From IMG/VR virus record IMGVR_UViG_2713896798_000006: a DNA stretch of 25,620 nucleotides. One strand, written 5' to 3'. This DNA comes from a virus (lineage: Duplodnaviria > Heunggongvirae > Uroviricota > Caudoviricetes). Within the stretch, counting starts at the first letter, position 1; the number at the start of each line of letters is the position of its first letter. Positions 5,079 to 16,848 of this stretch are shown here, one piece after another. The position numbers and the translations under genes are program-made. The notes below the pieces were generated by a model. The model was not told the origin of the DNA and did not search any database. It saw only the letters and a list, made by a program, of their open reading frames with translations.

Positions 5079-5136
5079 AAAAAGGGCGGCAGAGCAGCCA
5101 CGGAGTAAAACTGATACCGCCAAACGTCACCAGAAA
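5079..5136 (-). ncRNA. dicF: DicF small RNA (ftsZ-targeting sRNA of the dicB operon)
   Basis: Reverse complement of 5084..5136 reads TTTCTGGTGACGTTTGGCGGTATCAGTTTTACTCCGTGGCTGCTCTGCCGCCC followed by TTTTT, matching the ~53-nt DicF sequence as I recall it; lies about 175 nt upstream of dicB. Confidence 0.8.
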
Positions 5137-11802: not shown

Positions 11803-12443
11803 GTGAATTAGCTATCAGGCTTCAATTGTCGCTGGCATTCGCATCAAAGGAGAATGAGATGATCACTTTTACAAAAGAGCAGTTAATCAGTCATGTTAGT
11901 GAAAATGTAAAGGCGATGAAATTTGCAGTAAAACAGACAGTATTCAAAAATTCTCTCGAGGCAATTGAGTTGGATTTAGCACTGGCCCTTGTTGCTCAGG
12001 CTTCGCTGGAAGCAGAGCCCGTGCTTTATATGAATCGATTTACCGGAAAGACATTCTCACTGGAAGAGCAACCCGGTGCTGATAAGGAACCGGAAATATA
12101 CGTGCCGCTATATGCTGCCCCGCCAGACAGCGCCGCCATGCTTCAGGCTGGAAACTTTCGGGAAAATAAGGGTTCGTCAACCAATAATTTTCGGGAAATC
12201 TCGGAAACGTCAACCAACTATCCGGTAACTCCGGATGGTTGGATAAGCTGTAGTGAGCGAATGCCGGATGATGGTCAGCACGTAATTATTTTATGTGATG
12301 GCGCATTCGTTCTTTATGCGCAATATCGAGACGGTGAGTTTTTTGATGTAGTCCGTAATGGTGATGAATTTTTCGAAACACAGAGCCGCAATGTAACCGA
12401 CTGGATGCCGCTACCAGAACCGCCGCAGGAGGTGCGCCAATGA
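11799..12443 (+). CDS. DUF551-like C-terminal domain protein; alternative start at 11859
   Basis: C-terminus WISCSERMPDDGQHVIILCDGAFVLYAQYRDGEFFD...WMPLPEPP typical of DUF551; both GTG 11799 and ATG 11859 have good Shine-Dalgarno sequences. Confidence 0.6.
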   Translation: MSELAIRLQLSLAFASKENEMITFTKEQLISHVSENVKAMKFAVKQTVFKNSLEAIELDLALALVAQASLEAEPVLYMNRFTGKTFSLEEQPGADKEPEIYVPLYAAPPDSAAMLQAGNFRENKGSSTNNFREISETSTNYPVTPDGWISCSERMPDDGQHVIILCDGAFVLYAQYRDGEFFDVVRNGDEFFETQSRNVTDWMPLPEPPQEVRQ

Positions 12444-12523
12444 TCTGGCCTGAAGCCTTTGCAATTACAGGCGTTGCTATAGCTATTGATTTTTTAGTAT
12501 ATGTTATTTGTCGGTGGGGGTAA
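12440..12523 (+). CDS. Tiny hydrophobic ORF (27 aa), MIWPEAFAITGVAIAIDFLVYVICRWG
   Basis: ATGA overlap with the preceding stop; manual translation; not in the ORF track. Confidence 0.25.
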   Translation: MIWPEAFAITGVAIAIDFLVYVICRWG

Positions 12524-12558
12524 AAACGTTCGCCGGGATTCACACCAAAGGAGGGAAT

Positions 12559-12663
12559 ATGTCGGATGATATTTCACTGGCAATGGAAGGTGCTCTGGCT
12601 GTTATTGCTGTTGTGGGCGTTTACTGCCTGGTTGTGTTTTTGATGGATCGACTAGGGAACTGA
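12559..12663 (+). CDS. Small membrane peptide (34 aa), MSDDISLAMEGALAVIAVVGVYCLVVFLMDRLGN
   Basis: Strong Shine-Dalgarno AAGGAGGG 4-5 nt upstream of ATG; single predicted transmembrane helix; manual translation. Confidence 0.4.
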   Translation: MSDDISLAMEGALAVIAVVGVYCLVVFLMDRLGN

Positions 12664-12671
12664 ATTCATTA

Positions 12672-12693
12672 CGATATGGGAATTCCCATATCG
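12672..12693. promoter_or_regulatory. 22-bp perfect palindrome CGATATGGGAATTCCCATATCG (candidate dimeric regulator site or RNA hairpin) in the hok leader region
   Basis: Exact reverse-complement symmetry seen directly; no flanking U-tract on either strand. Confidence 0.4.
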
Positions 12694-12908
12694 GGTAAAA
12701 ACGGTTTGCGGTAAAGCGAGAGTTAAGTAGAATTGCTGCGGGTGCTTGAGGCTGTCTGCCTCGGGCATGCCACCGTAAGGCAGACAGAGAAAAGCCCCAG
12801 TTAACATTACGCGTCCTGCAAGACGCCTAACATTAATCTGAGGCCAATTTCATGCTAGACATATGTAGGTTAGCCTCTTACGCGCCGAAAGGCAAGGAGA
12901 AGCAGGCT

Positions 12909-13064
12909 ATGAAGCAGCAAAAGGCGATGTTAATCGCCCTGATCGTCATCTGTATCACCGTCATAGTGACGGCACTGGTAACGAGGAAAGACCTCTGCGA
13001 GGTACGAATCCGAACCGGCCAGACGGAGGTCGCTGTCTTCACAGCTTACGAACCTGAGGAGTAA
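12909..13064 (+). CDS. hokD: Hok/Gef family type I toxin (51 aa)
   Basis: MKQQKAMLIALIVICITVIVTALVTRKDLCEVRIRTGQTEVAVFTAYEPEE is essentially K-12 HokD as I recall it; followed by a terminator; the track ORF extends upstream in frame from 12852. Confidence 0.85.
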   Translation: MKQQKAMLIALIVICITVIVTALVTRKDLCEVRIRTGQTEVAVFTAYEPEE

Positions 13065-13133
13065 GAGACCTGGCGAGGGAGAAATCCCTCGCCACCTCTG
13101 ATGAATCAGGCATCCTCAACGCACCCGCACTTA

Positions 13134-13159
13134 ACCCGCTTCGGCGGGTTTTGTTTTTT
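13134..13159 (+). terminator. Rho-independent terminator of the hok transcript
   Basis: Stem acccgc/gcgggt with ttcg loop followed by tttgtttttt; preceded by a second hairpin ggcgaggga...tccctcgcc. Confidence 0.7.
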
Positions 13160-16530: not shown

Positions 16531-16695
16531 TTTTTTTGTTTACTGTTTATTAAAAATACTACTGCATGGTGAATCCCCCTGTGCGGAGGGGCAATCAGCA
16601 ACCAGGTATATGTGATAATCGCGGATTCAGGTGCTGATACTGAATTCACCGGGAGGCACCCGGCACCATGCAAGAAAAAGAATGTGCATGCAAAC

Positions 16696-16723
16696 ATGCC
16701 CCTCTCCTGAGGGGCATTTTTAT
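16696..16723 (+). terminator. Rho-independent terminator (plus strand)
   Basis: 9-bp stem ATGCCCCTC/GAGGGGCAT, loop tcct, then ttttta. Confidence 0.55.
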
Positions 16724-16724
16724 G

Positions 16725-16752
16725 GGTAAAAAATGCCCGAATGGGTTCGGGC
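16725..16752 (-). terminator. Rho-independent terminator (minus strand), back to back with the plus-strand one
   Basis: Stem gcccgaa/ttcgggc with loop tggg; on the minus strand it is followed by the U-run complementary to ggtaaaaaat. Confidence 0.4.
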
Positions 16753-16848
16753 AATAGCATGAGATACTGATATTGTTGTGTTGTTATCGTGTGGATTTTA
16801 ACCAGGGTTTATCAGGCTGCGCAACTGCGTGGCCTTTTTTCATTTCTT

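Follow-up and report, generated by a model that had tools for sequence, protein, structure and literature searches.

The window analysed here, a 25,620-nucleotide stretch of viral DNA (Duplodnaviria; Heunggongvirae; Uroviricota; Caudoviricetes) recorded in IMG/VR as IMGVR_UViG_2713896798_000006, contains a hok toxin gene, an overlapping mok frame, a structured leader and a predicted Sok antisense gene around positions 12672 to 13159 (Table 1). Combined, these features very probably make up a hok/mok/sok type I toxin-antitoxin module that is complete and encoded in cis, located in the nin-like, early-right part of an E. coli lambdoid prophage of Rac/Qin-like type. The elements themselves, their homology to known loci and the covariation between the tac and fbi elements are direct observations from the alignments, and the transcription starts are predictions drawn from plasmid R1 and the hokW-sokW locus.

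Table 1. Features of the hok/mok/sok region and its upstream DNA, in window coordinates.
Feature	Position	Strand	Remarks
Extra upstream block	12529-12704		~176 bp; 34-aa hydrophobic ORF (12559-12663) plus the palindrome; absent from the otherwise collinear Stx2 phage I
22-bp perfect palindrome	12672..12693	.	CGATATGGGAATTCCCATATCG; adjoins the hok/sok module, outside the predicted transcript
Predicted hok promoter	12705..12733	+	-35 TTTGCG 12705-12710; -10 TAGAAT 12728-12733
Predicted full-length hok mRNA	12740..13158	+	~419 nt; RF01794 model position 1 at 12740; 3' end at the terminator
tac element	12740..12751	+	GGGTGCTTGAGG; mRNA 5' end; pairs with 13114-13126
5' tac hairpin	12740..12798	+	RF01794 helix 1; alternative local fold of the 5' end
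Predicted Sok RNA	12784..12860	-	77 nt; 5' tail GUCUAGCAUGAAAUU, long hairpin, U-rich tail CUUUUCUCUGU
mok Shine-Dalgarno	12840..12843	+	GAGG; 8 nt 5' of the mok ATG; covered by Sok; invariant in 41 loci
mok ORF	12852..13064	+	70 codons; same frame as hok, with hok inside
Sok promoter	12867..12895	-	-35 TTGCCT 12895 to 12890; 17-nt spacer; -10 TAACCT 12872 to 12867
hok Shine-Dalgarno	12894..12899	+	AAGGAG; read from the sequence; conserved in the 41-locus alignment; 2-nt overlap with the Sok -35
hok ORF	12909..13064	+	51 aa, MKQQKAMLIALIVICITVIVTALVTRKDLCEVRIRTGQTEVAVFTAYEPEE; Pfam PF01848; hokD annotation in the identical RefSeq stretch
Post-stop stem-loop	13066..13099	+	Inverted repeat; -24.5 kcal/mol, z = -7.3
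fbi element	13114..13126	+	CCTCAA-C-GCACCC; complementary to tac
hok intrinsic terminator	13133..13158	+	Hairpin 13133-13150 (7-bp stem, 5 GC pairs) plus T run

The prophage setting was read from the genome NZ_CP144930, which differs from the window at one base across 12.5 kb. Its gene order is racR, ydaS/ydaT-like genes, replication genes, DUF1627, DUF977, DUF551, the 34-aa ORF, hokD, a hypothetical gene, DUF968, RusA, a Q-like antiterminator and the lysis genes. A 541-bp stretch around the hok locus is 100% identical in RefSeq genomes, including NZ_CP144930, where the toxin is annotated as hokD. Of 5426 complete E. coli genomes, 4736 had a match to this stretch, in 2 places per genome at the median and in up to 11, and the element is at least 90% identical in thousands of genomes. 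Elsewhere in the window, three prophage sRNA genes score above their Rfam gathering thresholds: DicF at 5084-5135 (minus strand, 75 bits), STnc100 at 16538-16727 (plus strand, 148 bits) and, directly adjoining STnc100 on the opposite strand, the anti-GcvB sRNA AgvB at 16728-16789 (minus strand, 96.5 bits).

Two sets of loci were used for comparison. The window was aligned with five partners, namely the hokW-type locus of Stx2 converting phage I, K-12 hokC/mokC/sokC, K-12 hokB/mokB/sokB, an R1-type IncFII plasmid hok locus and K-12 hokD; the Stx2 phage I locus contains the exact published probe and primer sequences of hokW-sokW from the Sakai prophage Sp5. Additionally, a scan for related loci, restricted to a single genome for each species, gave 60 hok loci (Escherichia, Shigella, Kluyvera, Citrobacter, Pseudocitrobacter, Photorhabdus, Pantoea and Erwinia), and 41 distinct intact loci were aligned. 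Contigs L026, L033 and L067, all very short and attributed to Acinetobacter idrijaensis, Xanthomonas pisi and a gut MAG, have near-identical E. coli-type hok genes that are probably assembly contamination.

The hok and mok frames and the predicted hok mRNA

The toxin frame scores 83.2 bits with the Pfam profile PF01848 (HOK_GEF; cutoff 22) and covers positions 1-42 of the 42 in the profile. Together with a 114-bit match of the leader to the Rfam family RF01794, this result confirms the first-pass annotation of a hok-family type I toxin locus with a structured leader and a full-length toxin. The start of the mok frame aligns with that of K-12 mokC, its ATG column is nearly invariant across the 41 loci, and both frames and both Shine-Dalgarno sequences are intact in the window. 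As in K-12 mokC, mok is in frame with hok, whereas the annotated mok and hok ends differ in K-12 hokB. Toxicity has been demonstrated for HokW, with neutralisation by sokW (PMC8621323), and is also described for overexpressed K-12 HokD in a preprint (bioRxiv 10.1101/2025.08.07.668861). As a separate observation, the hexamer TACGAA at 13047-13052, spanning the tyrosine codon 47 of Hok, is invariant at the DNA level in 41 of 41 aligned loci; the same preprint reports that A-to-I editing by TadA recodes tyrosine to cysteine at the equivalent position of hokC, hokD and hokE.

The RF01794 model, which Rfam names "sok", matches 12740-12914 on the plus strand over its full length with 114.3 bits (E = 1.2e-25), about twice its gathering score of 59. 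Its consensus starts with GGGUGCUUGAG and extends to the hok start region; because the model thus spans the interval between the mRNA 5' end and the hok start, it describes the hok-sense leader and not the antisense RNA. The plus-strand match therefore marks the hok leader, and the Sok RNA lies on the opposite strand. With the transcript placed in this way, the leader of about 240 bp proposed in the first-pass annotation retains its structured character and is divided into 68 bp of upstream and promoter DNA (12672-12739) and a transcribed leader of 169 nt (12740-12908). Its description as non-coding does not hold throughout, because the mok frame begins at 12852.

The hok promoter was inferred from its position relative to the conserved 5' end of the transcript, GGGTGC, which follows the -10 hexamer by 6 nt, and from the presence of TAnnnT at this site in nearly all aligned related loci; an alternative -35 hexamer, TTGCGG at 12706-12711, would give a 16-nt spacer. 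A consensus promoter scan reported neither the hok nor the Sok promoter, each being a weak match to the consensus, and a terminator scan missed the Sok terminator, the stem of which is long and interrupted. Homology was therefore needed to place all three elements.

Folding of the whole transcript supports the proposed ends. The minimum-free-energy fold of the 419-nt RNA (-178.4 kcal/mol, z = -7.6) brings the 5' and 3' ends together and is closed by 12 tac/fbi pairs. Across the 41 loci, pairing is kept in 89.8% of the tac/fbi cells, and at four pairs both partners change (e.g., UA in 27 loci and CG in 11), with the compensatory changes spanning loci of Escherichia, Kluyvera, Photorhabdus, Pantoea and Citrobacter. 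For the whole structure tested in these loci, 79.8% of the cells pair, vs. 31-47% after a shift of the partners by 1-3 columns. The 5' end can alternatively fold locally into the tac hairpin, which is built on a 21-nt inverted repeat (12741-12761 and 12778-12798; 61-nt fold, -34.2 kcal/mol, z = -5.6). The core of this hairpin is the 10-bp stem ctgtctgcct/aggcagacag (12752-12761 and 12778-12787) already noted in the first-pass annotation. In the R1 model, the 5' tac hairpin forms once the 3' end containing fbi has been trimmed.

The two hairpins previously noted 3' of the toxin gene are also genuine features and can now be named as the post-stop stem-loop and the hairpin of the intrinsic terminator. 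A GC-rich hairpin equivalent to the former occurs in the aligned homologues, including the R1-type locus. The terminator (fold of -13.8 kcal/mol, z = -5.6) is also found 3' of K-12 hokD, and the fbi element is located between the two structures, matching the order in the R1-type locus.

The predicted Sok gene and its promoter

The first-pass annotation had found no convincing Sok promoter or terminator and had left it unclear whether the toxin is under antisense control. Alignment to known hok/sok loci overturns the first of these statements, as it places a predicted cognate Sok gene at complement(12784..12860) with a promoter of the form TTGCCT-17-TAACCT and a fold that ends in a terminator hairpin and tail; this is the outcome that the first-pass annotation had itself named as a refutation. 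The ends annotated for sokC and sokB in K-12 fall in both cases at 12860 (5') and 12784 (3') on the minus strand, where the sequence reads CTCCTTGCCTttcggcgcgtaagaggcTAACCTacatatGTCTAGCATGAAATTGG... and the predicted +1 is the G at 12860, seven bases past the -10 hexamer. The predicted RNA folds into a long hairpin flanked by a 15-nt single-stranded 5' tail and a 3' tail (-33.9 kcal/mol, z = -5.35). The 5' tail is antisense to the mok ATG, and Sok is fully complementary to both the Shine-Dalgarno sequence and the start codon of mok.

The Sok promoter is conserved across the 41 loci: the -35 begins with TTG in 40 of 41 (as TTGCCT or TTGACC), the spacer is 17 nt in all 41, and the -10 is TAATCT in 16, TAACCT in 11 and a close variant in the others. 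Part of this conservation could stem from constraints on the sense strand, given that the -35 shares sequence with the hok Shine-Dalgarno, and the spacer with conserved elements of the hok mRNA. In sokW, changing the -10 from TAACCT to GAGCCG with primers YO-421/422 produced a promoter-less gene and abolished protection against HokW (Takada et al. 2021, PMC8621323). The -10 hexamer in the window is exactly the one mutated in that experiment, and its spacing to +1 is also identical to sokW. Additionally, the pairing of the Sok hairpin is better kept on the antisense strand (92.6% of cells across the 41 loci) than on the sense strand (72.9%), and two C·A mismatches in the hok mRNA correspond to G·U pairs in Sok.

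Work cited in a preprint (bioRxiv 10.1101/2025.08.07.668861) reported that the hok/sok loci on the chromosomes of laboratory E. coli strains do not mediate post-segregational killing; an intact sequence is no proof of activity. A decayed or silent copy, with one or both of the Sok and hok promoters inactive, no working antisense control and the toxin either kept off by mRNA folding only or never made, would agree with these reports of inactive K-12-type chromosomal loci and with a Sok promoter that has only 7 of the 12 sigma-70 consensus positions and was missed by the consensus scan; K-12 hokD itself, having neither leader nor sok, points in the same direction. Such a copy is nevertheless unlikely, since no element of the module is missing or interrupted and the reading frames, Shine-Dalgarno sequences and tac/fbi pairing are all intact. 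The identity of the Sok -10 and its spacing with functional sokW, the RF01794 score and the sequence identity kept in thousands of genomes also argue against decay.

The stretch at 12845-12860, which holds the Sok 5' tail and the mok start, varies more among homologues than any other part of the locus and is flanked by nearly invariant blocks. This pattern fits what would be expected of a specificity determinant for locus-specific recognition between Sok and hok in genomes with up to 11 copies. The number of related places per E. coli genome, combined with the high conservation of the Sok hairpin and tail among paralogues, could alternatively suggest that Hok is controlled mainly in trans by the Sok RNAs of other hok loci, leaving the cis-encoded Sok redundant. 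Control in trans is considered highly improbable, however, because the variable 5' recognition tail (identical at 17 of 23 positions to sokW, with six differences, and at 15 of 23 to sokC) argues for locus-specific pairing, and because the cis-encoded Sok is perfectly complementary to its target by construction.

The palindrome and the upstream block

The 22-bp perfect palindrome that the first-pass annotation placed in the leader is present as described, and its position is outside the predicted transcript, 11 nt upstream of the hok -35. It carries a central EcoRI site, is unique in the window even when three mismatches are allowed (0 matches expected from 100 shuffles) and can fold into a hairpin of -14.5 kcal/mol (z = -4). 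A gapped DNA pattern scan recovered this context in over 100 IMG/VR contigs, where the variants of the palindrome comprise a 1-nt deletion (21 contigs) and single mismatches (2) and show no covariation. The palindrome is absent from the hok loci of Stx2 phage I (hokW-type) and E. ruysiae, the closest of those compared. Its location upstream of the -35 and its absence from close hok loci led to its rejection as a part of the hok leader, and the lack of a U tract after the hairpin on either strand rules out an intrinsic terminator.

The 22-mer, or a 20/22 match to it, was also found inside KilA-N-type coding sequences (e.g., in L051, with a Pfam KilA-N score of 83.6 bits). In a KilA-N gene beside a Photorhabdus hok locus the 20/22 match encodes SDMGIPIT, and in unrelated KilA-N-type coding sequences the 22-mer encodes DMGIPI. 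An origin as the remnant of a KilA-N gene was rejected because the flanks in the window break that frame, with a stop following directly on the minus strand, and the recurrence may be a coincidence.

The palindrome belongs to a block of about 176 bp that is bracketed by a direct repeat, GGGTAAAAACG, at 12517-12527 and 12693-12703, and that looks like an inserted or recombined mini-module. Compared with the E. ruysiae locus, which has the small ORF, the window has only the palindrome and GGGTAAAAACGG in addition. Tiny hydrophobic ORFs are encoded at 12440-12523 (27 aa, MIWPEAF...CRWG) and 12559-12663 (34 aa, MSDD...MDRLGN); homologues of these are located upstream of hok in other prophages (L002 and L015), and neither ORF had a match in Pfam.

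A role for the palindrome in hok control, either as an operator through which a phage or host regulator acts on the hok promoter or as an RNA hairpin insulating hok from early-operon read-through, would be in line with its closeness to the -35, its perfect symmetry beyond chance expectation, its stable hairpin and its retention in the IMG/VR contigs. This role is quite unlikely, since the palindrome is missing both from the locus type of hokW-sokW, which has been validated, and from further close hok loci that have the same promoter, no U tract follows it on either strand and its variants show no compensatory changes. Since the palindrome is located exactly at the GGGTAAAAACG-bracketed mosaic junction, a recombination joint fits better than a regulatory site. 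The more specific proposal that 12529-12704 is an inserted cassette, with the palindrome serving as a protein-binding or RNA-processing site that ties hok/sok to early-operon read-through, is very unlikely; if true, it would help to explain how Sok is removed and Hok released on induction, a step left open for hokW-sokW.

Related loci and proposed mechanism

The window, Stx2 phage I, K-12 hokC/sokC, K-12 hokB/sokB and the R1-type plasmid locus all have the same order of module elements. The closest relative is hokW-sokW of Sakai prophage 5 and Stx2 phages (Takada et al. 2021, PMC8621323), which also belongs to a lambdoid prophage and has about 91% nucleotide identity with the locus in the window. 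The two loci have in common the Sok -10 (TAACCT) and -35 (TTGCCT), the hok -10 (TAGAAT), the tac sequence and a Sok hairpin extended by 18 nt compared with sokC, sokB and the R1-type locus; the predicted Sok is identical at 68 of 77 positions to the sokW region of Stx2 phage I. The differences, apart from the Sok 5' tail, lie in the C-terminus of the toxin (FTAYEPEE in the window vs. FVDYESEK in HokW, translated from the aligned Stx2 phage I sequence and from primers YO-369/YO-560), in the 3' terminator and in the extra block directly upstream.

The toxin itself is nearly identical to that of K-12 hokD (relF) of the Qin prophage, with 50 of 51 residues identical (I16 in the window, L16 in K-12) and with a near-identical post-stop stem-loop, fbi and terminator. 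The position in the prophage is also the same, upstream of DUF968/YdfU and the Q antiterminator. The homology begins only at about 12893, however, and relBE takes the place of the promoter, tac, mok start and Sok gene in K-12. The relBE-hokD type is defined by the lack of a leader, mok and sok, and the window, which has a full leader and sok, falls outside it. Truncated relBE-hokD copies keep only the hok Shine-Dalgarno, ORF, fbi and terminator; this layout was also seen in another E. coli strain and in a Kluyvera (L011 and L035). As K-12 hokD has no leader and no sok, the window carries the intact form of the hokD locus type, and the K-12 gene is a truncated remnant.

Similarly, the hok/mok/sok locus of plasmid R1, the paradigm of the family, has the order tac, 5' hairpin, Sok target with mok start, Sok promoter, post-stop stem-loop, fbi and terminator, as in the window, and the leader in the window matches RF01794. 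The R1 Hok has low identity (44% is given for HokW, the relative of the toxin in the window, vs. R1 Hok; PMC8621323), and the setting is a plasmid in R1 vs. a prophage here. The predicted Sok is also longer, at 77 nt, than the annotated sokB and sokC (57-59 nt).

Based on R1 and hokW-sokW, the following mechanism can be proposed. The plus strand would yield a stable hok mRNA, about 419 nt in length (12740 to approximately 13158) and closed by pairing of its 5' tac and 3' fbi elements, while a short Sok RNA (12860 to 12784) would be produced from the minus strand by its own promoter within the mok/hok translation-initiation region. If sufficiently abundant, Sok would block translation of mok and hence, by translational coupling, that of hok, and the Sok/hok duplex would be marked for RNase III cleavage by analogy with R1. 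Once the supply of Sok stops, the hok mRNA, which would outlive Sok and be trimmed at the 3' end, would refold into the 5' tac hairpin and be translated. The resulting 51-aa membrane toxin would then damage the inner membrane and kill or lyse the cell.

In the close relative hokW-sokW, the supply of Sok ends at prophage induction: on RecA-dependent induction of Sp5, sokW RNA vanishes and HokW appears, and hokW-sokW doubles phage release. By analogy, the locus in the window may have a similar biological role. The hok gene is oriented with the early-right operon, so that antiterminated transcription reading through after induction would meet the Sok promoter head-on. In our reading, such read-through could explain the loss of Sok on induction.

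Overall, the sequence describes a canonical and apparently intact hok/mok/sok module. The locus is already known as a kind and, essentially, also as a sequence; it is an ordinary prophage copy, and its discovery value is small, as prophage hok/sok copies number in the thousands and the closest relative of this one is already characterised experimentally. RefSeq records of this stretch name only the toxin, as hokD, and leave mok and the Sok RNA unannotated. The coordinates of mok and Sok given here are therefore useful, since public annotation omits both.
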